Below are positions 2,467-64,000 of a DNA stretch of 64,000 nt, in pieces. Under the pieces are notes generated by a model that saw nothing but the letters and a program-made list of their open reading frames with translations, had not been told where the DNA came from and ran no database searches. The first letter of the stretch is position 1, and each line of letters starts with the position of its first letter. The translations under genes were made by a program, and so were the position numbers. The DNA comes from a phage. The stretch lies in sequence record OZ413487.1. The stretch is one strand, 5' to 3'.

Positions 2467-4890
2467 ATGAGCATGTGGTCGTTCGACTTTGAGTCATCCG
2501 GTTTGCTGGAAGACCCAGATCTTTATTATCACTGCGGCCTGTTTAAAGAGCTGAATAAGAACCGTTTTATGCTGTTCCTTCCTCTAAATGACCGCACACA
2601 CTACTCCGAGGAGGATATAGAAAAGGCTAAGAACTTCATTCTGGCAAAGAAAACTCTTTATAAAGATTTTGAAGTTCGCATAGCAGATTTTTCAGAGTTG
2701 GAAGGTTGGCTTACAGGAAATTCTGACTGGTCACCAACAGCTTTGAACTGCCATAACTGCTACAGTTATGACTTTATGCTGATGGAAAGATTATCTGGTA
2801 TTCATTTTGATATGTTCCGTGATCCTAAATGTATGGGGACTATCAACGATCACCAGGTTAACCTGTTTGATACGTTGGCGATGAGCCGAATCTTGTGGCC
2901 TGATCGCCCTTTACCAAAAGGTTGTCCGGACTCTGTATTCAACCCGGTTACTAAGAAAATGCAGCCTGTTGGTCCTCACGGCCTTATGGCATGGGGCTAC
3001 GCCCTTGGTAACCAGAAAGTTCAAATTGATGACTGGCGCGATCTTCCGTTGTGGAAGTATGTGGATCGTGTATTCGAGGACGTTATCATCCAGGAGCTGC
3101 TCTGGAAAGAGCTGGTAGCGGAATCAAAAGGTGTATTCTACGGCAAATCTGACATGCAGAACTTTATGTACGATCCGGCCAAAGAGAAGCCGAAAGGGTT
3201 CAAGAAGATCACCTGGAAGAACGCATTACGTCGAGGCATGCTGCAGCACTTCCTGATGGAGCTGCAGGCCCGTCAGGGTGTATACTTCGACATAGATGGA
3301 GCTATTGCTTTACGTGACCGTTGCGATGCGTGGATGAAAGAAATCGCTGATCGTGTTGAACCACAACTACCTTTAAAAGAGCTGTCAATGTCTCAGCGGC
3401 CCAAGTTCCCTGAAAAGCCGTTTAACCAAGACGGGACAATCTCTAATAATGGTTGGAAATGGTTAAAAGATAAGCTTGGCTATCCTGTAGACATGAGTGC
3501 TTTAGAGTTCAAAGCCCTGCCTAAGCGAGCATTTACCTCTACAGGAGATGTCAGCAAGATGGGGATAAAATGGTGTGAAGAGATGGGCTGCAAAGACCCC
3601 GATAAGATGGCTGATTTCTTGAGAGGCTATATTAAGGGCACCTCCACACCACAACCCTTACCTAAAGAGCTGATGGATCAGGCAATAAGTGATCTGCAGC
3701 AGAAGCGAATGCCTGACTGCAAGATACCTATGAAAATCAGCAATCAGGACGACATCAAGCGATACCTAATCAGTGCTGGTTGGCTCCCAACAATGTGGAG
3801 AACTAAAGATGTAACTAAAGACAGCAAGAAGAAAGCTTTACCTGATGCAGATGTTGATGCACGAGTATATGCATATATGGACGAGCTTTTGGAGTCAGAG
3901 TATTGTGACCTAATTATCAACTTCTGGAACAAAACTGATGCTAAGTTCCAGACAACCGTGCACAAGTTCCGAAGCTTTCCTAACTCCGAAAGGATTAAAA
4001 AGGAAGTATTCGGGAAAATACGTAGAAAAGCCAGGGCACTTATTACTTCTCCGCAACTGAAAGATACGTTTGGACACCTATGCCCAAATCTTGAAAAATT
4101 GAACGGAGAGATGGCTAAAGATATCGTCTTGTGGTTATCATTGCGAAACCGCAGATCGGTCCTTGATCCAATCAAGGAGGATAAGGTTGATACTGGTCTT
4201 CTTAATCACCCACGTTTGAAGATTGACCATAAGCTTCCTGCTAAAAGCTCTGGATTAACAAACACTTCCAGACAGAAACACAGTATTTGTGCAAACATGC
4301 CTAAACCATCTCCTAAAGTAGTTATGGGTAAAGAGATGCGTAGTCTGTGGGGTGTTCCTCCAGGATACTTTGAGATCGGTATTGACGGGTCCAACTTAGA
4401 GCAGCTCATCGGGGCTTGGGGTGCCTTTGAGTTCGACAACGGCTTGTATTATGATGTTGTAAGTAACGGAGACGCACACCAAAACAATGCTGAGGCATAT
4501 ACAAAAGTGGCAGGCAGAGAGGTGTCCCGTAACGACGGTAAACCTATCACGTATGGGGTTATGTACGGGGCACAAAAAGATAAAGTTGCAGATATGCTGG
4601 ACATCTCCCCAGAGTTGGGACAAAGGGTAATCGATGCACTCTGGGATGCCAACCCAGGTCTTAAGGGGCGCAAAGAGGATCTGGAGAAATTCTGGGAAGC
4701 AACAGGTAAGAAGTTTATCTACTCTTTTGATGGTCATGCTATCTGGACCCGATCTAAACACTCTTTACTTAATGCATACCAACAAAATGGCGGTGCATCG
4801 TTGTGTGACTTAGTTGGAATACTCATGCACCACCAGATGGTGAAGCGTGGGTGGTACGATGAAGGTGTTCGTCGTATTATTTATTACCAT
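2467..4890 (+). CDS. DNA polymerase, family A, exon 1 (3'-5' exo + polymerase motifs A and B, up to His of motif C)
   Basis: N-terminal exo I motif FDFESSGL; motif A GIDGSNLEQ; motif B RNDGKPITYGVMYGAQ; ORF ends ...RRIIYYH-K-stop where family A polymerases have VHDE. Confidence 0.8.
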
Positions 4891-5166
4891 AAATAACATT
4901 GTGGCTTCATAGAGTAATCTATGTCGAATAACCTCTTTAACTGCGGGAAGCCTAAACCTTATGGCAAGGTAATCCGCAACGAAGCGCTCAAAAGAGCGAA
5001 CGCTCAGAGGCCATTCCGAAAGGAAGTAGACCAGCAAGTGCGGTCGAAATGGGAGGATTCCTGTGGTTGCTTATCATAGGAATATGAGATGGTCCGATCC
5101 TACGTGAAAACGTATGGCTATGCACGTAATGGTGCGGGGTAGCTTAACGACCTACCTGAACTATTG
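4891..5166. other. putative group I self-splicing intron in DNA polymerase gene
   Basis: Exon 1 ends in U (4890); intron ends in G (5166); internal guide CAUUGUGG (4897-4904) can pair with exon-1 end CCAU (P1, U.G at splice site) and exon-2 start GAUG (P10); four in-frame stops; splicing restores YYH-DEYQLQV. Confidence 0.55.
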
Positions 5167-7306: not shown

Positions 7307-7695
7307 TGAAAAATATTTGGGATATCGATATCTTTGAAGCCTCTAAGCTTGACGGTGCTGATGGAGTGATTATGGTGTCTGATGGCAAGGCAACACTAAC
7401 TTCCGGAGATATCATCTATGCCTTGGACGAGCTGGCGCTTCTGAAATCTACCGGTAACACTTTGGAGGAGCGTCTTCAAGGATTCGCTTTCAAAGAAGGT
7501 ACAAATACAGCCATGATGTGCACCACACGGACAGTTCAGGTTGGTAACGGTGTCTATATGATTATTGCTGTGTGTCCTAAATTCAGCAACGTCAACAAAG
7601 ATGATGCTGACGCGGTCAACGATGTGGTTGTTCTCTTCGTGGGTGACGCTATGGCAGATCTGATGAATGCAGGAGAAGCAGCAAATGAAGACTGA
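7303..7695 (+). CDS. hypothetical protein
   Basis: ORF track; 4-nt overlap with upstream gene. Confidence 0.45.
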   Translation: MMKNIWDIDIFEASKLDGADGVIMVSDGKATLTSGDIIYALDELALLKSTGNTLEERLQGFAFKEGTNTAMMCTTRTVQVGNGVYMIIAVCPKFSNVNKDDADAVNDVVVLFVGDAMADLMNAGEAANED

Positions 7696-7987
7696 AAACA
7701 TCACCCCAGCAGGGTTCTTAAAAGTATACCGTGAACTGCTATATACTACAGAGGACAGTGTTCTAGAGTATCCAGAATATCTTTTGCTGTATAAGTATCT
7801 GCAGGAGGCTGGTGAAAATCTGCCAGTTAGTGCAGAAGGTGGTCCAAACTGGATATACAGCGCATGGAGAAAGGTTGACATTCTCCCAGACCCAGGTAAA
7901 GATATGGTAGTTTGGCAGCTTATCAACAACATCGGGATTCCAATCTTTGATGAAGCTGTTAAAATCTATTTTGAACTTGACGATTAA
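7686..7987 (+). CDS. hypothetical protein
   Basis: ORF track 7667..7987; ATG 7686 has AGGAG RBS. Confidence 0.4.
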
Positions 7988-8004
7988 TATCAGGAGACCT
8001 TAAG

Positions 8005-8250
8005 ATGACTGAAGCAGTTGCTCGCGCAGGACAGAAAGTACGTTGTGTTGAAGTAGGTTTTGGTGGCAAAGGGTGTCAAAACTTGACTCAAGGTAAGGAA
8101 TACGCTGTTATCTCTGGGGGTGGAGACGAAAGTATTGTGTTCGAGGGCCACATCCTGGATGCTGAAAACTTTGAAATCTTTGACGACGATGGGGACCCGA
8201 TCACCTGCCTGCTGGACGGGAATTGGGGAACTTTCGAAGTGATTGGCTAA
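8005..8250 (+). CDS. hypothetical protein
   Basis: ORF track; GGAGA RBS. Confidence 0.45.
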   Translation: MTEAVARAGQKVRCVEVGFGGKGCQNLTQGKEYAVISGGGDESIVFEGHILDAENFEIFDDDGDPITCLLDGNWGTFEVIG

Positions 8251-8260
8251 CAAATACCTA

Positions 8261-8289
8261 TTGTAATTTACAGAAGGGGATGCTAAAAT
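8261..8289 (+). promoter_or_regulatory. sigma70-like promoter (TTGTAA-17-TAAAAT)
   Basis: Hexamers with 17-nt spacer upstream of gene at 8334. Confidence 0.4.
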
Positions 8290-8333
8290 AGTGTCTCCTT
8301 CTATGTTGTTCAAATAAAATCGGAGATTCCATA

Positions 8334-8699
8334 ATGGAACAAATGAACGATCAAGCGTCGGTTGCGATGAACGAGCAAGAACAACCTCAAGAATTTTTCT
8401 TAGGGTTAAGTAAAGATCAAGTGTCTCTTCTGCTAGTGCTTTCTTCTTTCATGGGAAGACTTCAGGAGCTTACACAACAGCCAGAGGCTGAACAATTATT
8501 CCAGGCTCTGCGTGAAGAAGAAAAATATCGTCGTTTGGACTATGCCTTAGGTTGGGTAGCTCAACAACGAGATATGCTGATGGCCCTCTCTGGGACCACA
8601 AGTTTTGCAATGGGCCTGTTGGCTCAAGTTCAGGACAAATTAATTCAAGCAGGGTTTGCACACACGGCAAACACTAACGAAGAACAAGGAGATAAATAA
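8334..8699 (+). CDS. hypothetical protein
   Basis: ORF track; GGAGA RBS. Confidence 0.45.
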   Translation: MEQMNDQASVAMNEQEQPQEFFLGLSKDQVSLLLVLSSFMGRLQELTQQPEAEQLFQALREEEKYRRLDYALGWVAQQRDMLMALSGTTSFAMGLLAQVQDKLIQAGFAHTANTNEEQGDK

Positions 8700-9925
8700 T
8701 GAGCGTTATTCAACAATTCGCTAACCCGATGAATCCGCGTGAAACTGTTTTACTAGCTCACGGCATGATTAAACGTGTCAGCATCAAGCCTATCAAAGGT
8801 GCTGATCCTACAACAGGTATTAAAACCACTGTGTGGCAAGGTAAGAAAATTGAATCCAGCCACACCATCTCTTTACTGATTTCTGAACTGGATTCCTCTG
8901 ATAACCTACTTCAAGGTGGTGAAGAAGTTTGGATCAGTATGGGCGATAAGCTGCTTAAACCAGGTCATCAAGACTCTGTCTCTGTTAAAATTGATGACAA
9001 GTGGGAAACCGTAACGCCAGGATGGATCGTAAATATCCCTTTGAAGGCAAACGAGCATAACGGTAAGACCTACTACAAAGGCTCACTGGCTAAGATGGTT
9101 AAGCTGGGTGCAGGAGAGGCTCCAGCAGCGACTCAGCAGCAAAAACAGCAACAAGGTGCACAATCACAAGGCCAGAAGCAGAAACCTCAGCAGAATGCCA
9201 ATCAGGACGTTTTACGCATCTATGGTGATGTGACTCAGATTGTTGGCAACGTGGTTACTGTTAATGACCACAAGATTGGCGAAGGTGCTATGGTTGTCAC
9301 TGATGAGCAGCTTAAAGACCTGGTGGTAGGTGGTCGTGTTGCAGCCATTGTTGACAAAGACACCGGAAACATTATCAGTGGCTTCAAGGCCTATCCTCCT
9401 AAGGCAGAGAACGGCACTCAAGGCTCTGGTGGCAAGCGTAAATCCTCTTACGACCCTATCGGTGTGGAGACGGGACATAGCATCAATGCGTTGCAGATCA
9501 TCCTGGATCGCGGGTTTAAGGTGGACGACCCACTAGGCGTGGCTAAAACACTGCACGTAGTCACCATTGAGCTTAAGAAAGAGTATGCTCAAGCCACCAA
9601 CCGAACTGAAGATGAAGTAGGTGCCAGTGTCGGCAATGCGGTGTTGAACGCTTGTCGCCGTATTGACAAGAAAACGAAAGTTGATGATTTTGCAGCGGCA
9701 ATTACTGCAGAAGCAAAAGATGTCTTGACTAATCTGGCTGAGCCGTTGTACGATTGGATCAAGAACGGTGCTGGGTCCACTGACCATCAAGAACCTCAAG
9801 CTGCCAAACAGGAAGCAGCTCCACAGCAAAACACTGTAGACGCTCCTCCTGTAAATGACGAGGAAGATGACCCGATGGATCAGAATCCAGCACAGTATGA
9901 GTTCGATGACTCGATCCCTTTCTGA
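8699..9925 (+). CDS. putative ssDNA-binding protein
   Basis: C-terminus QYEFDDSIPF resembles the acidic DDDIPF tail of bacterial SSB; Gln/Pro-rich linker; sits in the replication module. N-terminal fold not verified. Confidence 0.45.
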   Translation: MSVIQQFANPMNPRETVLLAHGMIKRVSIKPIKGADPTTGIKTTVWQGKKIESSHTISLLISELDSSDNLLQGGEEVWISMGDKLLKPGHQDSVSVKIDDKWETVTPGWIVNIPLKANEHNGKTYYKGSLAKMVKLGAGEAPAATQQQKQQQGAQSQGQKQKPQQNANQDVLRIYGDVTQIVGNVVTVNDHKIGEGAMVVTDEQLKDLVVGGRVAAIVDKDTGNIISGFKAYPPKAENGTQGSGGKRKSSYDPIGVETGHSINALQIILDRGFKVDDPLGVAKTLHVVTIELKKEYAQATNRTEDEVGASVGNAVLNACRRIDKKTKVDDFAAAITAEAKDVLTNLAEPLYDWIKNGAGSTDHQEPQAAKQEAAPQQNTVDAPPVNDEEDDPMDQNPAQYEFDDSIPF

Positions 9926-9933
9926 GGTCAGTT

Positions 9934-10512
9934 ATGAAATGCAAACGTTGTGGAGAGGACAAGGAGGCCTCCGACTTCTACACCAGTAACAAATCAACGT
10001 GCAAAGAGTGTTGCAAGAAGGCCAGCAGGGAGGCTGACCAATTTGCTAAAGACTCTTCAGAAAAAGGTGTAATACGTGTGTTGTACAAGGCTCAAAAGTG
10101 CAACAGCAAGCAAAGAGGTCACCCTCCTCCGACTTACACCAAAAAAGAGTTTAAGGAGTGGCTATACCTTAACGGTTACAAAGAGTTGTATGATCAGTGG
10201 GTAGCCAGCGGATACGACAAAAGGAAAAAGCCTTCTTGTGACAGGATAGATGATTTCAAAGGGTACTCTTTTGATAATATCCGTTTAACGACTTGGGGAG
10301 AAAATAAAGACAAGCAGACAGAGGATATTCTGTTACATAGAAGCACCAGCGGTAGACGGTGCAAAAATGTAAGGAGGTTGGACATGAATGGTAACGTTCT
10401 TAAAGAATGGGTATCTCACAACTCTTGTAGCAGAGAAACCGGAATATATATTGGTTACTACATTCATGAAAAAATTCCAGCTCCAGATGGATACTTATAC
10501 GAATACTTTTAA
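9934..10512 (+). CDS. putative HNH-family homing endonuclease
   Basis: N-terminal Cys cluster CKRCGEDK...CKECCKK; SCDRIDDFKGYSFDNIRLTTWGEN resembles degenerate HNH_3 motif. Confidence 0.45.
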   Translation: MKCKRCGEDKEASDFYTSNKSTCKECCKKASREADQFAKDSSEKGVIRVLYKAQKCNSKQRGHPPPTYTKKEFKEWLYLNGYKELYDQWVASGYDKRKKPSCDRIDDFKGYSFDNIRLTTWGENKDKQTEDILLHRSTSGRRCKNVRRLDMNGNVLKEWVSHNSCSRETGIYIGYYIHEKIPAPDGYLYEYF

Positions 10513-10527
10513 CACATAACTAACATA

Positions 10528-10555
10528 GCCCTGCCCGAAAGGGTGGGGCATTTTT
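10528..10555 (+). terminator. intrinsic terminator
   Basis: GCCCTGCCC-GAAA-GGGTGGGGC hairpin followed by TTTTT. Confidence 0.6.
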
Positions 10556-10574
10556 GTATAAGGAGATCTGAAAA

Positions 10575-10991
10575 ATGACATTAGAAGATATCATTGTTAA
10601 ACCTGAGAACTATGACCAATACAACCTGTCAACTCAATCTGTAGACCTTGGATGCGCCACAGTTAGTGCGTGGCTGGTTAATGGAAAAGAGCTGGACAAG
10701 TGCTTAGAAGCTCACATGTCTGTTAACAAGTTTCTGGATGAAAATACTCACTGGCTTGAGGGTGCTGGAGTATATGCTTCATGGTTGGAGAGCATGGGCT
10801 TTGACTATCAATCTGATGAAGGGTGGTGGAGCTATCTGGCTATCTGTCCAGAAACACTGCAATGCTTCATGAAATACTCTGAAGATCTTGAGTACCGAGC
10901 GGTGGTTGATAGTGCTATTGCCCGTTATAGCCGTAAACCTTTTTCCCATGACATTAAAACTGTGGAAGAATTTGTTGAAGTTTTCTGTTGA
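10575..10991 (+). CDS. hypothetical protein
   Basis: ORF track; GGAGA RBS; stop TGA embedded in downstream TTGACA. Confidence 0.45.
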   Translation: MTLEDIIVKPENYDQYNLSTQSVDLGCATVSAWLVNGKELDKCLEAHMSVNKFLDENTHWLEGAGVYASWLESMGFDYQSDEGWWSYLAICPETLQCFMKYSEDLEYRAVVDSAIARYSRKPFSHDIKTVEEFVEVFC

Positions 10992-11087
10992 CACAGGTTG
11001 AAAGGTGTGCAATTATAACTTCATAAAACGGGAGGACGCGATGAACGAAGAAAACTGGGATGTATAACTAACAGGAGACCACTGCCC

Positions 11088-11285
11088 ATGATTTATCGAA
11101 TCCGTGTAAGAGAAGATGCACCAGGCTGTTACTTTGACTGGCGTGGGTGGTGGTTTCTCCACCCGATGGATGGACTCACAGATAGAATGCTGGATGCTGC
11201 CCTTTATACAGATACCGACATAGAATATAATCTTTATCTGAAGGACGGTATAGATAACGGCCTATTTGAAGCAATTCCTGTGTAA
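11088..11285 (+). CDS. hypothetical protein
   Basis: ORF track; AGGAGA RBS. Confidence 0.4.
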   Translation: MIYRIRVREDAPGCYFDWRGWWFLHPMDGLTDRMLDAALYTDTDIEYNLYLKDGIDNGLFEAIPV

Positions 11286-57451: not shown

Positions 57452-57519
57452 GGTTAAACCCTCTCAAACATTTTATGAGGTGACAATACCACGTCCGTGT
57501 GGTTATGTCAATGATACTG

Positions 57520-58218
57520 TTACAAGCTTTCAGTAAGAGCCTTTGCGTAACACGCTTCAGCAGACTCTTTGGTGTCAAACCTGCCTAACGTTTTTCCTCT
57601 GAAAGTTACTTTCCATTTGCCCCTGTCTGCTTCAAATCTGACACCTCTAGATTTATCCCTCCCTAAAGGCTGTCCACGATATTCCCTGACAAACGTGCCA
57701 CTTTCAAAAGACTTTTGAGCAGCAATGGCCTCTTCTAAGGTATCGTATTCTCCTAAATCTTTCTTATAGTAATGACCTACCTTACCAAAAGCAGCATACC
57801 TTCCAGATCTAGCATGAAAATATACACCCAAATGTCCAGTATTGGATTTAGGTATCTTGCGTGCCAGGCATCCGTCATCTGCCGCCTTTTTTGCATTTTC
57901 TTCTGGTGTTAACAGTTGTAGGTTTTCTACCCTATCATCCGCAACACCATCGGAATAGAAAAGTGGCTTTATGTGATCAACTTCGTACCCTTCTGGGATT
58001 GGTCCATAGTGCATCTCCCACACCAATCTATGCCTGTAGTAATGCACGCCACAATAGACTATATCCCTGTACCCGTCCATGTTAGTACATCCAGCCTCCT
58101 TTCCCAGTAGTTGAGGTTTGTTTTTTGGCGGGGACTTCCAAAACAACCTTCCAGTTCCTGTATCGTATCTAAAGACACTCCACCAGTTAATCCCGTTACT
58201 CATCTGTAACAACTCCAC
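57520..58218 (-). CDS. HNH homing endonuclease with AP2 DNA-binding repeats
   Basis: HNH core HRLVWEMHYGPIPEGYEVDHI...NLQLLTPEEN; two AP2-like repeats (GRYAAFGKVGHY...EAIAAQKS; GKWKVTFRGKTLGRF...AEACYAKA). Confidence 0.75.
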   Translation of the reverse strand: MELLQMSNGINWWSVFRYDTGTGRLFWKSPPKNKPQLLGKEAGCTNMDGYRDIVYCGVHYYRHRLVWEMHYGPIPEGYEVDHIKPLFYSDGVADDRVENLQLLTPEENAKKAADDGCLARKIPKSNTGHLGVYFHARSGRYAAFGKVGHYYKKDLGEYDTLEEAIAAQKSFESGTFVREYRGQPLGRDKSRGVRFEADRGKWKVTFRGKTLGRFDTKESAEACYAKALTESL

Positions 58219-58684
58219 CTGCCTTCTTAAAGATATCCAGCATCTTGTCTATACTTTCTGCTCGCTGATTGTACAGCTTTCCAGCTCCTGGCGGTGGTGG
58301 GAAGCTTGCCCAGCGGCTGCGGCATTTATAAATGGCCTGATGAATACGCCCTTCGTCAATGTCAGCGAGAGCCTTGCACTCACGGATCAGTTGCAACGCA
58401 ATCTTGTCCTGACTGGCAGGGCCAAAATCTGGTAATCCTAACTGTTTCATGTAGTGTTTAGCAAACTTCTCCAAAACCTGGTAACGACCAGCAGCGGAGG
58501 AGGTAAGTTTAGCATTTAGCTTAACGTAAACACCTGGATGCTTGCTGTAATCGCTGAACAGCTTGCCGCCGACTATGACATCGTACCCCCGATCCTTGGT
58601 AGGTTGTCTACCATTATCTGTTCCTTCCGAATATGCGATCATATCCAAGAAAGCTTTTCGTTGAACATTTTTATCAAGTTTCAT
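58196..58684 (-). CDS. lysozyme, lambda R-type lytic transglycosylase
   Basis: NVQRKAFLDMIAYSEGTDNGRQPTKDRGYDVIVGG near-collinear with lambda R NNQRKAFLDMLAWSEGTDNGRQKTRNHGYDVIVGG. Confidence 0.85.
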   Translation of the reverse strand: MKLDKNVQRKAFLDMIAYSEGTDNGRQPTKDRGYDVIVGGKLFSDYSKHPGVYVKLNAKLTSSAAGRYQVLEKFAKHYMKQLGLPDFGPASQDKIALQLIRECKALADIDEGRIHQAIYKCRSRWASFPPPPGAGKLYNQRAESIDKMLDIFKKAGGVVTDE

Positions 58685-58808: not shown

Positions 58809-60092
58809 TCATTCCAGAACCTCCCAAGTGTCTGGGTCAACATTTCGGACGCAGATACCGACAGGGAATTGGTAGTTGTTGTCTTCTGTCCTTGATTGAT
58901 ATTTGAAGGTGACAAACTTGCCGATCATTTCCTGCATCCTGTCATAGCTACGCTCCTCGTGCGTGCCTTTCATCTTCATTTTAACAATAACACCTTCCTT
59001 GTCAACACAGATAAGAACACCTTCATCATTCTTATCTTTCTCAACGTCAATAACTTTCACCTCTGCGTCGTTGAACTTTTTCCATTTCAATGCTTCAGAT
59101 GTTCGCTGACCGTACTCGTATTTACCGCAGAAATTACGCATGATAGTACCTTCATATCCTTCGGACATGAATATACCAACAGATTCTTCGCAATGATCAA
59201 CTGTGTACGCAAGCTCTGCGTCAACAACCTTGATATGGTCAAGCATCAGAGTGGTAACGGTATCCTCTGCATCCATAAGATCCTTGCAGCGTCCAGACTC
59301 TGTTTCTGGATCCCACCACACCTTGTCGCTAGGAATATCAAAAATGTGATACTCCAGATCGTAGCTACAGTACCCACCGTAACGCAAATCATCACGAACA
59401 GGCTCAACATCGACAGGAATATCTACCTTGTTGAAGTTTTTGTATGTTGATAAGCCTGCCTTAATTGCTGCATGACGGCGTTTTTTATCTGCCTCATAGT
59501 CTTTATCGATCTCGGCCTGAATTTCTTCCTGTGTGCGCCACCGTTTAGCAAGAGACACTATTTTCTGCAGAGGAAGACCATGAATATAGAGCTCTCCGTC
59601 GAGCTGTTTAATCCCGGTGGTTAGGTGGAAAGAGCGAAGTTGCTCCAGAAGCTTTCCTTGAATAGGGTAGGACTTATTACCACGGGAAATAAATTTAGGC
59701 TCACCATTTTGGAAAACAACAAGCAGACGAAGGCCATCTAACTTACGCAAGATCCAGCAAGGTAATTTAAGTGCCTTGCCACGCTTCAGGTAGTCATGCA
59801 CCAGCATGGGTAAAAGATCAACACCCTGCTCGCAATCTTCCATGTTTTCAACATACCCCAGACGGACTTGTTTTTCCCACTTGCTGATAGCCTCAAGCTC
59901 GGCCTGTTGCTCAGCTGTAGTCTCGTTGGCACGACCTACGTTCTTAGGTGTGCATACCGTCTCTTTGTACTGCAGTTTACCATCAAGCTTGCCAAACTCT
60001 ACGATAACCTTATCACCATCCGTGAATACTTTCCACTGTTGGTAGCTGCCATCTTTATTCAGTGCGTACAGTGTTGTTTTGATCTGATGCAT
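58809..60092 (-). CDS. ATP-dependent DNA ligase
   Basis: Motif I KLDGLR (KxDGxR); motif IV EGYEGTIMRN; motif V LKWKKF. Confidence 0.7.
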   Translation of the reverse strand: MHQIKTTLYALNKDGSYQQWKVFTDGDKVIVEFGKLDGKLQYKETVCTPKNVGRANETTAEQQAELEAISKWEKQVRLGYVENMEDCEQGVDLLPMLVHDYLKRGKALKLPCWILRKLDGLRLLVVFQNGEPKFISRGNKSYPIQGKLLEQLRSFHLTTGIKQLDGELYIHGLPLQKIVSLAKRWRTQEEIQAEIDKDYEADKKRRHAAIKAGLSTYKNFNKVDIPVDVEPVRDDLRYGGYCSYDLEYHIFDIPSDKVWWDPETESGRCKDLMDAEDTVTTLMLDHIKVVDAELAYTVDHCEESVGIFMSEGYEGTIMRNFCGKYEYGQRTSEALKWKKFNDAEVKVIDVEKDKNDEGVLICVDKEGVIVKMKMKGTHEERSYDRMQEMIGKFVTFKYQSRTEDNNYQFPVGICVRNVDPDTWEVLE

Positions 60093-60361
60093 TACTCGGC
60101 CTCTTCCTTAAAAATTTTAAACATCTCTTCTTTACTCATTACCAACCAGTCTCCCATAAAGTCAACTAGCCAATCTCCCTGGTACAAGACAAGGTTACCA
60201 AAAGGCTCGACAAGCTCACACATGCGACGAAGATCTCTGGTCCGAACAGGTGACGATGTAAACACACCTGTATCAATCCACCGTTGCAGATCAGATACTG
60301 ATGAAGAGCTTCCGTCAAACTGATGTGCTTCTACAGGTTTAGCAAGATTAAATAACGGCAT
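60092..60361 (-). CDS. hypothetical protein
   Basis: ORF track. Confidence 0.4.
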   Translation of the reverse strand: MPLFNLAKPVEAHQFDGSSSSVSDLQRWIDTGVFTSSPVRTRDLRRMCELVEPFGNLVLYQGDWLVDFMGDWLVMSKEEMFKIFKEEAE

Positions 60362-60686
60362 TGCAGTCCTCCTTCTGTAGTAGGTCTTTTATAGGATAAA
60401 CAAGTAAGTGTGGGTCGTAATAACGTATAGTCCTATTCTGCCACACTATGAACTTTATTACAACCAAATTTACAATATCTTTATCACCATGTAGCCCAAC
60501 ACACACATTTGTCCATATTTTGTGGTTGAAGACCTTGCTATCGATGTAGATTTTAGTGTCAAACTTATCCTCCATTCTACCAATAAGTTTAACCAACTCT
60601 TTCATCTGATCCCCAAACACAGCATCGTTTTCAAGATCTCTAGAGTGCTTGTACATAACTATCTGCCTCACTTGCATACTTTCCAC
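60348..60686 (-). CDS. hypothetical protein
   Basis: ORF track. Confidence 0.4.
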   Translation of the reverse strand: MESMQVRQIVMYKHSRDLENDAVFGDQMKELVKLIGRMEDKFDTKIYIDSKVFNHKIWTNVCVGLHGDKDIVNLVVIKFIVWQNRTIRYYDPHLLVYPIKDLLQKEDCNAVI

Positions 60687-60719
60687 AACAAGTAAAGCCG
60701 GGTAATCCCGGCTATGTTG

Positions 60720-61433
60720 TTAAATATACTCTGTTACATCCTTGAAGCTCGAAGGCTTCATGATCTTACCTTTACTGTCAAGGAATATGATAACTTTATT
60801 ACCGTTGTAGAATTCTTCCTTAGCAACAAAACCTTCATATCGACCATCAAAGCGTCGTTCAAGATCTTTAATCTCCAACTCGATGAGTTGTTCAGCAGGC
60901 ATATCTGCACTGGCACCGTGTGAATACCGTAGATGGTTGACCCGTGCAAACTTGCTGTCATTCGATTTGAGAACCTTACGCATCATCCCGCACACATCGC
61001 CGCGAAGCTGGAACAGCAAAGCTGTTGACAACTCTGCTAAGCGGTAAGCGGATGCTCTTTGCTTAGAGGTGTTTTTCGCAGCGATCAGTGTATCATAGAA
61101 CTCACCGATCTTGAACTTAAGACCTCGTGGATTATCAAACAGGTTTGACCACTTTTCGTGATTGTCATTAACAAGATAAGCGGCATAACTTGTGACAACG
61201 TGAAGATCGCAGGCCTCTTTTAGCAGGTGATCTCCACCATCCCCTTTCTCCAGCTCTTCCAAAACTTCATTGAACTCTTCCTCAATGAAGCTAAGCTGTA
61301 ATTCGAACGGTATGTATGATTTTTTCACTTTAGCTGCCACACGGTTCCAGTTTTCCACCCAGTTGGCAGACCAAAGGTAGTTTTCAGGTTGGGACAGTTT
61401 TTCCAGGTTGTCAATTAATTTGGTATTCAGCAT
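60720..61433 (-). CDS. hypothetical protein with MazG-like NTP pyrophosphohydrolase N-terminal region
   Basis: EEEFNEVLEELEKGDGGDHLLKEACDLHVV resembles MazG E-x2-E-x-EA...ELGDLL helix pair. Confidence 0.35.
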   Translation of the reverse strand: MLNTKLIDNLEKLSQPENYLWSANWVENWNRVAAKVKKSYIPFELQLSFIEEEFNEVLEELEKGDGGDHLLKEACDLHVVTSYAAYLVNDNHEKWSNLFDNPRGLKFKIGEFYDTLIAAKNTSKQRASAYRLAELSTALLFQLRGDVCGMMRKVLKSNDSKFARVNHLRYSHGASADMPAEQLIELEIKDLERRFDGRYEGFVAKEEFYNGNKVIIFLDSKGKIMKPSSFKDVTEYI

Positions 61434-61446
61434 TAAAGGTCTCCTT

Positions 61447-62208
61447 TTAAAGTTCCATAAAGTTTTCTACGGTCTCAATGAATGTTTTATCAGAGAAGGC
61501 ATCAACCGCACCGTTAAACCAAACTGGGATGCCGCGATCCTCATACTGGTAAATATCACTACGTGAAATGCCATTCTCCTCTAGATGCTGTGAGTCGTAT
61601 TTATTAACGATCAGTAGTTTGGTTCCCTTATTGCAGGCAGGGAATAGCTCCCAGTTAAAATTGATAACTGTGTTGGAACACCCTACAAGGATAACCATAT
61701 CATTGCTTGTAAGAGAAGTCAACAGGTCATACATGTCTGTATACTTCGGAGCTACTTCTCCGAAGAACACCACATTAGGTTTAACCCAGGTATACTTTCC
61801 TGCATCTACCTCAGAGTATCCAATGTCCTTAATGACGTCACTTCCTTCATCGTCCTCATAGACTATTTCTGGCAAATACCCGTGAACATGTAAAATATCT
61901 TCATGTTTTACACCAGCACGCTCCAGCAAATCATCTACATTGGTGGTAAGGTTGATCACACGACCAGACCAGCGGGAATACCACTCAGCGATCCGAAGAT
62001 GTGCAAGGTTAGGCTCAACACCGCCTAGAGCTACACGACGTGCATTGTAAAAGTCATGCACCTTGTAGTAGTTCTTGGCAAAGGTGTGGATGTTGCACAC
62101 CTCATCGATGCTGAAATTCTCCCACATTGCAGTGCTACCAGATCGGAAAGTGGGAATACCAGATTCAGCGCTCAAACCAGCACCGGAGATAATAATCAGT
62201 CGTCGCAT
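61447..62208 (-). CDS. Sir2-family protein (sirtuin-like NAD+-dependent enzyme)
   Basis: GAGLSAESGIPTFR; catalytic HG in DILHVHGYL; FGE and VGCSNTV motifs; no Zn-ribbon cysteines. Confidence 0.75.
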   Translation of the reverse strand: MRRLIIISGAGLSAESGIPTFRSGSTAMWENFSIDEVCNIHTFAKNYYKVHDFYNARRVALGGVEPNLAHLRIAEWYSRWSGRVINLTTNVDDLLERAGVKHEDILHVHGYLPEIVYEDDEGSDVIKDIGYSEVDAGKYTWVKPNVVFFGEVAPKYTDMYDLLTSLTSNDMVILVGCSNTVINFNWELFPACNKGTKLLIVNKYDSQHLEENGISRSDIYQYEDRGIPVWFNGAVDAFSDKTFIETVENFMEL

Positions 62209-62216
62209 AAGTGTCC

Positions 62217-62567
62217 TCAGTAGATGTTTTGTTTAATCTCTATTCCAAACTTTTTAAACGAGTCAGCTGCAAGCATGAATTTACGAGCCGCTGATGGGTT
62301 AGAAGTATGCACGAAAATCTTCACGTTGTCAACTACAGGGGGCTTACCAAATACAAATTTTTCCTCCAACATAGATAGGCAATCGTACCCTTCGAACACC
62401 TCTCCAAGGTCGTTGTCCATGTGCCACTCAGAAACGCGTCTGTAGAGCTTTCCCCTATCGTTAATAAAATCTATAAACTCGGAGGAATTCTTTAGCCAAA
62501 TAGCGTCTGGGAGCCCATAATTTGACGGATCTCTCAAGTCATCCAGCCACACAATCAACTTCTTCAT
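62217..62567 (-). CDS. hypothetical protein co-operonic with Sir2 and RNA ligase
   Basis: 4-nt overlap with RNA ligase gene; 9-nt gap to Sir2 gene. Confidence 0.4.
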   Translation of the reverse strand: MKKLIVWLDDLRDPSNYGLPDAIWLKNSSEFIDFINDRGKLYRRVSEWHMDNDLGEVFEGYDCLSMLEEKFVFGKPPVVDNVKIFVHTSNPSAARKFMLAADSFKKFGIEIKQNIY

Positions 62568-63499
62568 TGCATATAGTTCTCGTTGTGGAAATAGTAATCA
62601 AGTATCTCACGGCGTTCCTGCTCCAGGAGGCAGTTCCACACATCTTCTGTGTAATTGTTACGAATGAAGTTTACCATGCCGTAAAACTCTTCGTCAACAC
62701 GTTTAAAGATATCATCATCCCAAATCCTCCAAGCTTTACCCCTCATTACGGCCTTCCGTGCCAGGTAGTATGGAGACTTGATCTTCAGCTGCAGGTCATA
62801 AGGGTAGTAAGGCTTACGGATCATATACCCTTCGCCCCTTGTTTCTGCGGCTAATTCTTTTGCATAGCTGAACGGGATTTCACGCACAGTGTGAGGACGT
62901 TTTGCACCAAGGTATTTGGCAATCCCATCTAAAGCTGCTTCTGGTAGCATTATTCCAGAATCATTATATCTGCAACCTATCAAATATGCGCCATGGTCTT
63001 CTTGAACAATATGCGGATCTGAAGGGTGACAAATTTCAAACATGAATGTCATGTTTTCATTGCCCATAACCTTCTTGATAAGATCTAAATTACCACATTG
63101 CTCTTGGATGGTTTCCTTTGCAAGGTTACAATATGGAGAATCAAGAGACCCGGTTGTTGAGAACAATAGGTCACCTTTATGAGATGATACCACACCAAGG
63201 AATCCGTTCTTTTTCTCTACCGCAGTCACAAGCTTATTGTCAGGCAGGTTGGTGGAGTTTTCTCCCAAGTTAAACACTTTTGTGAAGGGCCATGCCACAA
63301 CATTTCCTTCATTACCTACAACAATGCCTCGACACTCCAGTAAACGAGGGGACAAATGCCATAAATTGTTGTAAAATACTTTTCTAGCATATTTATAGAT
63401 CTTTAACCCAAGATCCGGGTAATATCTACTGGTTACAAGACCTTTGTCAACTAGGTCGTCTGCATTAAAATACTTCATCATACGTTCCTCATTTGTCAT
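62564..63499 (-). CDS. putative RNA ligase (nucleotidyltransferase superfamily)
   Basis: Motif I-like VEKKNGF, motif IV EGYMIRK, motif V-like LKIKSPYY; a separate DNA ligase exists at 58809. Confidence 0.5.
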   Translation of the reverse strand: MTNEERMMKYFNADDLVDKGLVTSRYYPDLGLKIYKYARKVFYNNLWHLSPRLLECRGIVVGNEGNVVAWPFTKVFNLGENSTNLPDNKLVTAVEKKNGFLGVVSSHKGDLLFSTTGSLDSPYCNLAKETIQEQCGNLDLIKKVMGNENMTFMFEICHPSDPHIVQEDHGAYLIGCRYNDSGIMLPEAALDGIAKYLGAKRPHTVREIPFSYAKELAAETRGEGYMIRKPYYPYDLQLKIKSPYYLARKAVMRGKAWRIWDDDIFKRVDEEFYGMVNFIRNNYTEDVWNCLLEQERREILDYYFHNENYMQ

Positions 63500-63543
63500 T
63501 TTGTCAGTCTATCCTGCCACACAAATAACCTAGTGTCAACACT

Positions 63544-63572
63544 TGAAATTAACAAAACAGTTAGGTATACTA
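63544..63572 (+). promoter_or_regulatory. sigma70-like promoter (TTGAAA-17-TATACT)
   Basis: In the divergent intergenic region; precedes ATG 63600. Confidence 0.5.
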
Positions 63573-63599
63573 TCGTTGAAATTAAAACGGAGTATTACT

Positions 63600-64000
63600 A
63601 TGTCTAAAATGCTATATATCGTGCGTGGTCTACCAGGGTCTGGCAAATCAACACTGGCAAATGCGCTATCTTTAGAAGGTCTGTATCCACATTTTGAGAA
63701 CGACATGTTCTGGTACGACGATGATGGAAATTACAACTGGGATGCAAGTAAAGTAACACTTGCAGCAAAATGGTGCAAAGATAACGTAGAAGATATGATG
63801 CGTATGGGATACGACCGTATCGTGGTAAGTAATACGTTTACAAAAGAAAAATATGTGCAAGAATATATTGACATGGCGATCAGTCATGGGTATAGTTATA
63901 CCGTGATCGTGGTTGAAAACCGCCATGGTAATAAAAGCATTCATGATGTTCCAGACAGGGTTGTGGATCGTATGGAACGCCAGCTTAAAAACTGCATTAA
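63600..64000 (+). CDS. P-loop kinase, polynucleotide-kinase-like (runs off the window end)
   Basis: MLYIVRGLPGSGKSTLANAL resembles T4 Pnk kinase-domain P-loop GCPGSGKST; RBS ACGGAG. Confidence 0.45.
   Translation, partial: MSKMLYIVRGLPGSGKSTLANALSLEGLYPHFENDMFWYDDDGNYNWDASKVTLAAKWCKDNVEDMMRMGYDRIVVSNTFTKEKYVQEYIDMAISHGYSYTVIVVENRHGNKSIHDVPDRVVDRMERQLKNCI

Follow-up and report, generated by a model that had tools for sequence, protein, structure and literature searches.

Gene content and layout of the locus

The window in this study, which is the whole stretch of 64,000 nucleotides taken from record OZ413487.1, comes from a Vequintavirus (rV5-like) phage of E. coli, and its DNA is 97-98% identical to that of rV5-like phages. 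Towards its end we observed four minus-strand ORFs, lying exactly at the coordinates given by an earlier sequence-only reading, in the following arrangement:

58809..60686, minus strand: neighbouring genes, two small ORFs (112 and 89 aa) and an ATP-dependent DNA ligase
60696..60713, minus strand: candidate terminator-like hairpin at the end of the four-gene unit
60720..61433, minus strand: MazG-like protein of the all-alpha NTP pyrophosphohydrolase (MazG/HisE) superfamily, 237 aa, its C-terminus carrying a small beta module
61447..62208, minus strand: stand-alone sirtuin (Sir2; PF02146) without Zn-binding cysteines, 253 aa
62217..62567, minus strand: cREC (cyclic-phosphate-processing receiver-like) domain protein (PF20274), 116 aa
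62564..63499, minus strand: Rnl1-type ATP-dependent RNA ligase, 311 aa, the leading gene of the four-gene unit
63500..63599: divergent intergenic region of 100 nt between the ligase and kinase genes
63600..64000, plus strand: polynucleotide-kinase-like P-loop kinase, 133 of 136 codons in the window

The gaps within the minus-strand unit are -4, 8 and 13 nt, the cREC start and the ligase stop sharing 4 nt, and these spacings make the four genes credible as an operon. The hairpin, with its 7-bp stem (six G-C pairs), 4-nt loop and T-rich tail, falls within a 33-nt gap 3' of the MazG-like stop codon. A sigma70-like TTGAAA-17-TATACT, a consensus match only, was noticed at 63543-63571 on the plus strand, upstream of the kinase ATG, while no consensus promoter for the minus-strand unit was found in 63500..63599. 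The kinase begins with the ATG at 63600 and its gene is truncated by the window end, the full protein being 136 aa in a 97-98% identical phage. A calcineurin-like phosphoesterase comes after the kinase in the near-identical phages; in phage WalterGehring it has 184 aa and is placed 3' of the kinase, at a position just outside the window. A phage 97-98% identical to the window has a cluster of tRNA genes 3.5 kb past the kinase. The neighbouring DNA ligase matches phrog_114 (E 5e-83), and the 112-aa and 89-aa ORFs match phrog_7684 and phrog_14585; all three also adjoin the repair genes in ESCO5, in Mydo-like phages and in further phages of 137-153 kb. These conserved neighbours accompany the block and are putative members of the system.

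Protein families and active sites

The proteins of this locus were identified with intact active sites, an operon layout and a conserved context, and among orthologues at 40-60% identity no catalytic residue of any protein varies. The RNA ligase matches PF09511 RNA_lig_T4_1 (E 1.1e-14) and phrog_562 (E 2.7e-66), and its family profile reaches T4 Rnl1 (2C5U, E 1.1e-12) with the nucleotidyltransferase domain covered, which upholds its earlier placement in a ligase family. Motifs I (K96-x-N98-G99), III (E155), IV (E223-G224) and V (K239/K241) are invariant (n=16, 40-49% identity) and correspond to those of Rnl1, whereas the alignment stops at T4 residue 250 and leaves the C-terminal tRNA-binding domain of the T4 enzyme unmatched. 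Trl1 ligase structures gave no match to the family profile at E up to 1; the nearest solved relative is T4 Rnl1, not a Trl1-type ligase.

The kinase matches AAA_33 (E 1e-10) and the phrog_505 polynucleotide kinase (E 3.4e-10). As the sequence-only reading had proposed, its family profile matches RNA-repair polynucleotide kinases first, namely Pnkp1 (4XRP), Clostridium thermocellum Pnkp (4GP6) and T4 Pnk (1LTQ), with E 2.5e-6 to 8e-6. Its invariant residues comprise the P-loop G10..G15-K16-S17-T18, E33, D35 and E106-N-R108-H-G-N, of which D35 aligns with the RDD motif of T4 Pnk. The phosphoesterase has the invariant motifs D8-x-H10, G58-D59, G88-N89-H90-D91, H123 and G141-H142-x-H144, and among solved structures it is closest to Aquifex aq_1665 (1XM7, E 2.7e-14) rather than to Pnkp.

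The sirtuin matches PF02146 (E 5.5e-27), and G9-A10-G11, S16-G17, F21-R22, N90, D92, H109-G110 (with the catalytic His), K143-P144-N145-V146, F148-F149, E151 and G176/S178-N179 are all invariant (n=14). Its lack of a Zn ribbon, already noticed from the sequence, was borne out: no Cys at all occurs from H109 to K143 in the phage protein and its close relatives, and the CxxC...CxxC is retained in more distant relatives from jumbo phages and plasmids. The best Foldseek matches of its AF2 model (pLDDT 78) are the class III/U sirtuins E. coli CobB, human SIRT5 and Archaeoglobus Sir2Af2 (E 6e-15, TM 0.72), with which it shares the fold (TM 0.7) and the NAD+-binding and catalytic His motifs, but from which it differs in lacking the four Zn-binding cysteines, in being phage-encoded, in standing alone at 253 aa and in its RNA-repair gene context. 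The best 50 PDB matches listed for the model are canonical deacylase sirtuins, none of them a defence Sir2. The defence Sir2 NADases (ThsA, DSR1/2, SIR2-HerA, SIR2-APAZ) have the Sir2 superfamily and NAD+ use in common with it, but these are large, multi-domain, host-encoded sensors or effectors, whereas the phage protein of the window is small and has a single domain. Proteins of this clade have acidic isoelectric points (pI 4.6-5.8), which is atypical of an RNA-binding enzyme and counts weakly against an RNA substrate.

The 116-aa protein, formerly taken as an unknown, is a cREC domain, matching PF20274 cREC_REC with E 1.3e-14 and scoring 55 bits where the cut-off is 27. Residues D9, D10, R12, D13, D51, D53 and H87-x-S89-N90-P91 are invariant and are kept even in a jumbo-phage cREC at 25% identity; a sequence search found no solved cREC relative. 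The 237-aa MazG-like protein itself has no Pfam match, yet its naming holds, as it matches phrog_671 'nucleotide pyrophosphohydrolase' (1.6e-21) and its family members match PRA-PH (18 of 30) or MazG (8 of 30). Its nearest fold is that of the dimeric dUTPases, which makes a role in dNTP house-cleaning possible.

Distribution and gene context in other phages

The Sir2 clade was found in 1010 phage records, the ligase in 756 and the cREC in 345. We considered the 10-kb neighbourhood of Sir2 in 51 sampled viral contigs carrying the clade, and repair genes were detected within 10 kb in only 12 of them. About 30 of the 51 loci are T5-like and show neither ligase nor cREC nor kinase over that distance; the Sir2 clade is much wider spread than the repair genes, and most of its carriers lack the ligase. 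In the Phapecoctavirus ESCO5 the repair block is intact with Sir2 30 kb distant. The link between Sir2 and ligase drawn by the sequence-only reading therefore holds as co-location in the window but is looser generally. In Mydo-like and other 137-153 kb phages the same genes occur together in changed order and orientation, with proteins 26-63% identical.

The Sir2 clade is also independently linked to RNA-end and ADP-ribose enzymes in three unrelated contexts, which supports a module. In the T5-like SP15, a HAD_SAK_2 'RNA repair' phosphatase (E 5e-20) lies one gene from Sir2; the jumbo phage Ecwhy_1 has the order Sir2-Nudix-cREC-x-PIN/PhoH, its Nudix pyrophosphatase occupying the place of the MazG-like protein; and on a 607-kb phage contig Sir2 is preceded, at a distance of three ORFs, by an Rnl1-type ligase. 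From the order in this unrelated jumbo phage, the recurring core looks like Sir2, cREC and a pyrophosphatase. Elsewhere, a nucleoside 2-deoxyribosyltransferase-like gene directly follows Sir2 in L055, and close bacterial homologues in Marinobacterium sit amid housekeeping genes. Since the module-bearing phages are related lineages, the synteny may be partly inherited rather than selected.

A predicted RNA repair system and its competing explanations

With reference to the literature, the same neighbourhood was named in "Escherichia phage V5" by Iyer, Burroughs, Anantharaman and Aravind (2022, Viruses 14:1977; PMC9503650), who proposed from comparative genomics that the sirtuin strips RNA 2'-phosphates like KptA/Tpt1, and predicted that the cREC domain processes cyclic phosphates. 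The neighbourhood and the Sir2 mechanism were hence already published, contrary to the sequence-only reading, which had regarded the function as unexplored. Theirs is a purely computational description of a sirtuin-centred, predicted NAD+-utilising RNA-repair system, and the window is a member of their configuration 2 (Escherichia phage V5 / Proteus phage Mydo), not different in kind. The locus is real, well conserved and an ordinary member of this system. Beyond that paper (PMC9503650), this study contributes residue-level checks, structure models, operon boundaries, the Zn-site loss within the Sir2 clade, and the occurrence of Sir2 unlinked (ESCO5) or alone (T5-like phages, Marinobacterium). 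A literature search turned up no experiment, biochemical or genetic, on any of the components.

We lean towards reading the locus as a phage module that heals and seals the ends of RNA, most likely tRNA, and to which an NAD+/ADP-ribose arm is attached. This reading is favoured by the family identities and invariant catalytic residues, by the compact four-gene unit, by the recurrence of these genes together in the Mydo-like and other phages, by the tRNA genes near the kinase and by the independent proposal of Iyer and colleagues. RNA repair is the likely function, and it is the best reading because the profiles match T4 Rnl1 for the ligase and RNA-repair polynucleotide kinases for the kinase; the target is probably damage by host RNases. 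That the kinase, phosphoesterase and ligase form an RNA repair pathway is very probable, and the Sir2, cREC and MazG-like proteins have about an even chance of sharing one NAD+/ADP-ribose-linked chemistry. A Tpt1-like role of Sir2 is plausible; RNA 2'-phosphate removal as its specific job is a tentative and rather doubtful assignment. Among the points that run against such a module, Sir2 is wider spread than the repair genes, its model is nearest to CobB/SIRT5, and the MazG-like fold is dUTPase-like.

Every substrate and every reaction in the following scheme is predicted. Cleavage by a metal-independent RNase of the host, be it an anticodon nuclease, a toxin or a HEPN-type effector, would leave RNA with a 2',3'-cyclic phosphate and a 5'-OH, and the latter would be phosphorylated by the 136-aa kinase. 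The 3' end could be healed by the calcineurin-like phosphoesterase, taking the phosphate off completely, or by cREC, opening the cyclic phosphate to a 2'-phosphate, before the Rnl1-type ligase would seal the nick. The Zn-less sirtuin would then remove any residual 2'-phosphate using NAD+, with chemistry as in Tpt1/KptA, whereby nicotinamide leaves as a phosphate oxygen attacks C1'', after which the His-activated 2''-OH attacks phosphorus; the resulting ADP-ribose cyclic phosphate might be degraded by cREC and the MazG-like pyrophosphohydrolase. In the T4 pathway the cyclic phosphate is fully removed and a 2'-phosphotransferase is not needed. With a complete phosphoesterase encoded next door and a T4 Rnl1-like ligase, the Tpt1-like step may likewise be unnecessary here.

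Comparatively, T4 Pnkp and Rnl1, which counter the PrrC anticodon nuclease, resemble the window in the ligase motifs, the P-loop and the RDD-motif Asp. The window kinase, however, is a stand-alone protein without the fused HAD phosphatase, so that 3'-end healing would need the separate phosphoesterase and/or cREC, and T4 has no Sir2, cREC or MazG-like partners. The nearest solved relatives of the kinase (E 2.5e-6 to 4.7e-6) are the kinase domains of bacterial Pnkp/Hen1 systems, represented by Clostridium thermocellum Pnkp and Capnocytophaga Pnkp1, and there too the 3' end-healing enzyme is a calcineurin-type metallophosphoesterase; the window differs in its separate polypeptides, in having no Hen1 methyltransferase, and in an Rnl1-type ligase instead of the Pnkp adenylyltransferase domain. 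Trl1/Tpt1-type repair follows the same proposed logic (cyclic phosphate to 2'-phosphate, 5' phosphorylation, sealing, NAD+-dependent 2'-phosphate removal and ADP-ribose cyclic phosphate clearance), but with different folds, the window having Sir2 for the ART-fold Tpt1, cREC for 2H and MazG-like for macro/Nudix, with predicted activities. Anti-defence activity, NAD+ use and a link to PrrC/RloC, Thoeris or DSR, as put forward by the sequence-only reading, are predictions only.

A less likely explanation, the strongest of the alternatives, keeps RNA repair for the ligase, kinase and phosphoesterase and makes Sir2 a separate host-takeover enzyme, which would deacylate or ADP-ribosylate proteins of the host or the phage in an NAD+-dependent manner, its place in a shared early/middle gene block being mere coincidence. 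This would suit the deacylases CobB, SIRT5 and Sir2Af2 as top structural matches with all catalytic residues kept, the T5-like majority without a nearby RNA ligase, the distant Sir2 of ESCO5, the housekeeping contexts in Marinobacterium and the acidic clade. Coincidence, however, fits poorly with Sir2 adjoining RNA-end/ADP-ribose enzymes in SP15, Ecwhy_1 and the 607-kb contig, or with its translational packing in the window between cREC and the pyrophosphatase. A further point against it is that the zinc module of canonical sirtuins contributes to the peptide-binding cleft, and the Zn ligands of this module are lost in the phage Sir2.

It is quite unlikely that Sir2, cREC and the pyrophosphatase (MazG-like, or Nudix in jumbo phages) instead target soluble NAD+-derived molecules and not RNA, making or destroying ADP-ribose-based signals or toxic metabolites of host defences. 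Ecwhy_1 has this triad without an adjacent ligase and L055 the deoxyribosyltransferase-like gene next to Sir2, but a signal-binding or sponge-like domain is absent, and cREC directly follows the RNA ligase in the window, with the 4-nt overlap, and in Mydo-like phages. Nor are sirtuins known to form or cut cyclic ADP-ribose isomers. The cREC domain has been tied to NAD+/ADP-ribose processing, in favour of soluble targets, and also to RNA ends (PMC7824862, PMC9503650).

The least probable explanation is that no joint system exists and that each gene acts independently in an inherited nucleic-acid metabolism block (RNA ligase, DNA ligase, kinase and dUTPase-like house-cleaning pyrophosphatase) common to related myoviruses, as the accompanying DNA ligase and two small ORFs, the dimeric-dUTPase-like fold, the carriers all being 137-153 kb relatives and the shifting order of retained genes would allow; against this, the four genes are tightly packed before a terminator-like hairpin, and next to the Sir2 and cREC of an unrelated phage Nudix takes the place of the MazG-like protein, a swap that points to shared function more than to shared history. 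Also against it, kinase, phosphoesterase and ligase are the defining set of known RNA healing-and-sealing pathways (T4 Pnkp/Rnl1, C. thermocellum Pnkp).

The locus and its published counterpart

The genes at 60720-64000 were correctly read from the sequence, and they represent a system that has already been catalogued, not a discovery. The domain calls of the sequence-only reading are sound, and the four minus-strand ORFs that it listed are all present, with RNA repair being the best available interpretation of the locus. Three sirtuin neighbourhoods have been described (Iyer, Burroughs, Anantharaman and Aravind 2022, section 3.7.3; PMC9503650). Configuration 2 joins a sirtuin with a cREC domain, a MazG pyrophosphatase, a T4-like tRNA ligase and a nucleotide kinase, and in some cases includes a calcineurin-like phosphoesterase. 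The genes of this configuration all lie within 3.3 kb of the window, with the phosphoesterase just beyond its end in phages of 97-98% identity. We reproduced all three published configurations. The locus is an unremarkable representative of a system known from earlier computational work, and its novelty is low. In the openly accessible literature, searches for experiments on phage sirtuins, on cREC or on RNA repair in Vequintavirus brought up only the two comparative-genomics papers. The layout of the region is as follows.

Features of the repair locus
60696-60713: GC-rich hairpin with a T-rich tail, after the MazG-like gene, within the 33-nt gap before the next ORF
60720-61433, minus strand: MazG-like protein, 237 aa, ORF confirmed
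61447-62208, minus strand: Sir2 protein, ORF confirmed
62217-62567, minus strand: cREC protein, 116 aa, ORF confirmed
62564-63499, minus strand: RNA ligase, ORF confirmed
63543-63571: sigma70-like site, a consensus-type match ahead of the kinase gene
63600 (ATG) onward, plus strand: kinase gene, divergent, 100 nt from the ligase start, cut by the window end at codon 133 of 136

The ligase, cREC, Sir2 and MazG-like genes are spaced by -4, 8 and 13 nt. The window belongs to a Vequintavirus (rV5-like), a myovirus of E. coli. Over its full length, the segment 60000-64000 shares 97-98% identity with upwards of 100 phage genomes, PMBT16, inoa and WalterGehring (Bas51) among them. In WalterGehring the genes downstream of the kinase encode a phosphoesterase of 184 aa and a small HTH protein, and beyond several short ORFs comes a cluster of six tRNAs; within the window itself no tRNA genes were detected, the Rfam search returned no family in the repair locus, and the repeat search gave nothing meaningful. 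When this segment and the Sir2, ligase and cREC proteins were compared with GenBank, 18 to 25 records named 'Campylobacter phage' (host C. jejuni) were also matched, with 90-95% identity to the rV5-like region, and being so near to coliphages their host label looks doubtful.

Conserved proteins of the locus

The ligase matched PF09511 (55.3 bits against a cut-off of 28.3), and a profile of 16 homologues matched T4 Rnl1 (2C5U, E 1.1e-12). The residues K96-x-N98-G99, E155, E223-G224 and K239/K241 (motifs I, III, IV and V) are invariant in these 16 sequences and align with KEDG, FEF, EGYV and KIKS of T4 Rnl1. The alignment ends at T4 residue 250, leaving a tail of about 65 aa which is conserved in the family (D269-E270-E271, W288, R296-R297) and has no counterpart in T4 Rnl1. 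The kinase belongs to the AAA_33 family, with an invariant G-x-x-G-x-G-K-S-T P-loop, E33, D35 and E-N-R-H-G-N motif, and the best seven PDB entries of its family profile, Pnkp1, the C. thermocellum Pnkp kinase domain and T4 Pnk, are all RNA-repair polynucleotide kinases (E 2.5e-6 to 1.9e-5). In the alignment D35 falls at the RDD motif of T4 Pnk, whose Asp activates the 5'-OH. For both the ligase and the kinase the structural relatives were detectable only by family profiles; when each protein was compared singly with the solved structures, the result was noise only. At 136 aa the latter consists of the kinase domain alone and lacks a fused 3'-phosphatase, whereas T4 Pnkp carries a fused HAD 3'-phosphatase and bacterial Pnkp a metallophosphoesterase. 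A separate Metallophos_2 protein of 184 aa, with all calcineurin-type metal-binding motifs, is encoded by the next gene after the kinase in WalterGehring, past the window end. The kinase, the phosphoesterase and the Rnl1-type ligase together form the signature of RNA healing and sealing, which is their likely function here.

The 116-aa protein, which the sequence-only reading had left as an unknown, carries the cREC domain, as it matched PF20274 with 55.1 bits against a cut-off of 27. This domain was defined in a 2021 jumbo-phage paper by the same authors as the sirtuin survey (PMC7824862), and its cyclic phosphodiesterase activity is a prediction that the source papers describe as experimentally uncharacterised (PMC9503650, PMC7824862). 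None of the receiver-like aspartates (D9, D10, D13, D51, D53) varies, nor does an H-x-S-N-P motif, and all are kept even in the cREC of jumbo phage Ecwhy_1 at 25% identity. Searching solved structures with the cREC profile disclosed no relative by sequence. Public records annotate cREC genes inconsistently: gp119, the homologue in Escherichia phage ESCO5, is annotated as a 'putative RNA ligase and tail attachment protein', and in phage Eryne the cREC match falls under a 'nudix hydrolase' feature, suggesting a Nudix-cREC fusion.

The MazG-like protein displays a four-helix core and the acidic metal-binding motifs (ExxE ... ExxD type) of all-alpha NTP pyrophosphohydrolases. The window protein had no Pfam match at E up to 0.1 and matched phrog_671 at 1.6e-21, and among 30 relatives a PRA-PH match was recorded in 18 and a MazG match in eight. 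A word-indexed search gave 16 homologues, and an exhaustive search outlined a small family of 165 clusters, whose sequence profile found no entry in the PDB. It is possible that the protein is simply a phage dUTPase; its fold is nearest the dimeric dUTPases, and no member of the family matched a dUTPase family model.

The Sir2 protein matched PF02146 over model positions 1-178 of 180 (95.3 bits against a cut-off of 24, E 5.5e-27). Every NAD+-binding motif (GAGxS, SG..FR, [TS]xNxD) is kept, together with the catalytic His109, and G9-A10-G11, S13, S16-G17, F21-R22, N90, D92 and H109-G110 are invariant in 14 sequences as well as in seven more distant relatives. The absence of a Zn ribbon, as described from the sequence alone, was borne out by the lack of any Cys between H109 and K143. 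In the alignment, the CxxC...CxxC pattern is lost in the rV5, T5-like, Phapecoctavirus and Marinobacterium members and retained in those from jumbo phages and a Paracoccus plasmid; the cysteines are present in the relatives L054, L055 and L075. The AlphaFold model (pLDDT 78) still harbors a small beta module at the Zn-ribbon site.

Gene neighbourhoods of the Sir2 clade

We searched 51 fetched viral contigs encoding this Sir2 clade with the window proteins. Phosphoesterase, ligase, (cREC), kinase, Sir2, DNA ligase and MazG-like genes were found in 12 of them, all phages of 137-153 kb, whose proteins are 26-63% identical to those of the window and whose gene order and orientation differ; Mydo-like phages, for instance, have a co-directional kinase gene, and their DNA ligase stands between Sir2 and the MazG-like gene. 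About 30 of the contigs are T5-like (104-122 kb) and have none of the other genes within 10 kb of Sir2; in the T5-like SP15, a HAD_SAK_2 'Swiss-army-knife RNA repair' phosphatase is encoded one gene away from Sir2. Phapecoctavirus ESCO5 has the series cREC...phosphoesterase-ligase-kinase...DNA ligase...pyrophosphohydrolase intact at 46-52 kb, with Sir2 at 17.5 kb. The unrelated jumbo phage Ecwhy_1 shows the order Sir2, Nudix (Nudt16-like), cREC, small ORF and PIN-PhoH, and in a 607-kb phage contig Sir2 is preceded, three ORFs upstream, by an Rnl1-type ligase. cREC with a pyrophosphatase, MazG-like here and Nudix in the jumbo phage, looks like the core that recurs around Sir2, and this non-homologous exchange of the pyrophosphatase points to a common chemistry on an ADP-ribose-type diphosphate. 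GenBank phage records numbered 1010 for Sir2, 756 for the ligase and 345 for cREC.

Fetched loci with homologues of the window proteins
L054 (IMG/VR, 607,744 bp), 7582-10708: Rnl1-type ligase, arginase-family protein (PF00491, E 9e-76), small ORF, Zn-containing Sir2 of the same clade
L055 (IMG/VR, 278,859 bp), 10001-11198: nucleoside 2-deoxyribosyltransferase-like protein (PF15891, E 1e-33) directly after Sir2
L138, 16164-21902, and L003, 5995-6795: Escherichia phage ESCO5 (cREC homologue gp119)
L056-L074 and L077 (chromosomes), e.g. L059, 7920-8732: Marinobacterium Sir2, with amino-acid dehydrogenase, SNF transporter, GGACT and lipocalin as neighbours

The PF15891 protein of L055 is another NAD+/nucleoside-type partner, and the arginase/ureohydrolase beside the ligase and Sir2 of L054 is unexplained. 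Bacterial homologues of the phage Sir2, from Marinobacterium and others (42-53% identity), were situated amid housekeeping genes, and many Marinobacterium species share a conserved Zn-less Sir2 with 42-50% identity to the phage protein, suggesting phage-host transfer and a function independent of the repair genes. The scan of bacterial genomes for the clade detected no repair genes near these homologues, which is uninformative on mechanism and mildly against an obligatory RNA link.

A KptA-like role for the sirtuin was proposed by Iyer et al. 2022 (PMC9503650). We consider it plausible, though less likely than not, that the Zn-less phage sirtuin acts as an RNA 2'-phosphotransferase in the manner of Tpt1. 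Judging from known mechanisms, sirtuin chemistry would be well suited to this step, since in both reactions C1'' would be attacked by an oxygen nucleophile and the transferred group would then be attacked by the ribose 2''-OH. Against such a role, the T4 Rnl1 pathway, that of the nearest relative of the ligase, requires no 2'-phosphotransferase, a complete phosphoesterase is encoded alongside, Sir2 often occurs apart from the repair genes or in their absence, and it has the fold of protein deacylases. The clade is also acidic (low pI), a weak argument against RNA binding on which we do not rely. A defence-type Sir2 NADase was rejected, because the protein has a single domain and its nearest relatives among the best 50 structural matches are the canonical sirtuins CobB, SIRT5 and Sir2Af2 (E 6e-15, TM 0.72).

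The remaining interest lies in the biochemistry, above all in whether the sirtuin can act on an RNA 2'-phosphate. If so, it would be the first of its family with a proven activity on a nucleic-acid phosphate in place of acyl-lysine, and the phage ligase pathway would run through a 2'-phosphate intermediate, like that of fungi and plants and unlike that of T4. Should the published prediction be right, sirtuins would gain RNA phosphate ends as a new substrate class, and phages would have built the NAD+-dependent healing chemistry of eukaryotic tRNA splicing from unrelated folds. The ability of rV5-like phages to withstand RNA-cleaving defences could be explained by a module of this kind. The question lends itself to direct testing: the E. 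coli phages that encode these small proteins (116-311 aa) are easy to grow and include members of the BASEL collection, and proven assays exist for Tpt1, cyclic phosphodiesterases and RNA ligases.

Other features of the window

Additional features
4881-5116, plus strand: group I catalytic intron (Rfam RF00028)
57516-58307: insertion of about 790 bp relative to WalterGehring, encoding an HNH_3 endonuclease
57520-58218, minus strand: ORF of the HNH_3 endonuclease, 232 aa, with a weak AP2-domain match below the Pfam cut-off
58196-58684: endolysin ORF
58809-60092, minus strand: ATP-dependent DNA ligase

The Pfam adenylation-domain match of the DNA ligase covers the last 54 model positions only, together with an OB domain; the N-terminal two thirds are divergent, and phrog_114 covers the whole protein. 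The HNH_3 insertion looks like a mobile homing endonuclease, and its ORF overlaps the 3' end of the endolysin ORF. The group I intron is a full-length match, recorded with 64.7 bits against a gathering score of 50 (E 4e-14).
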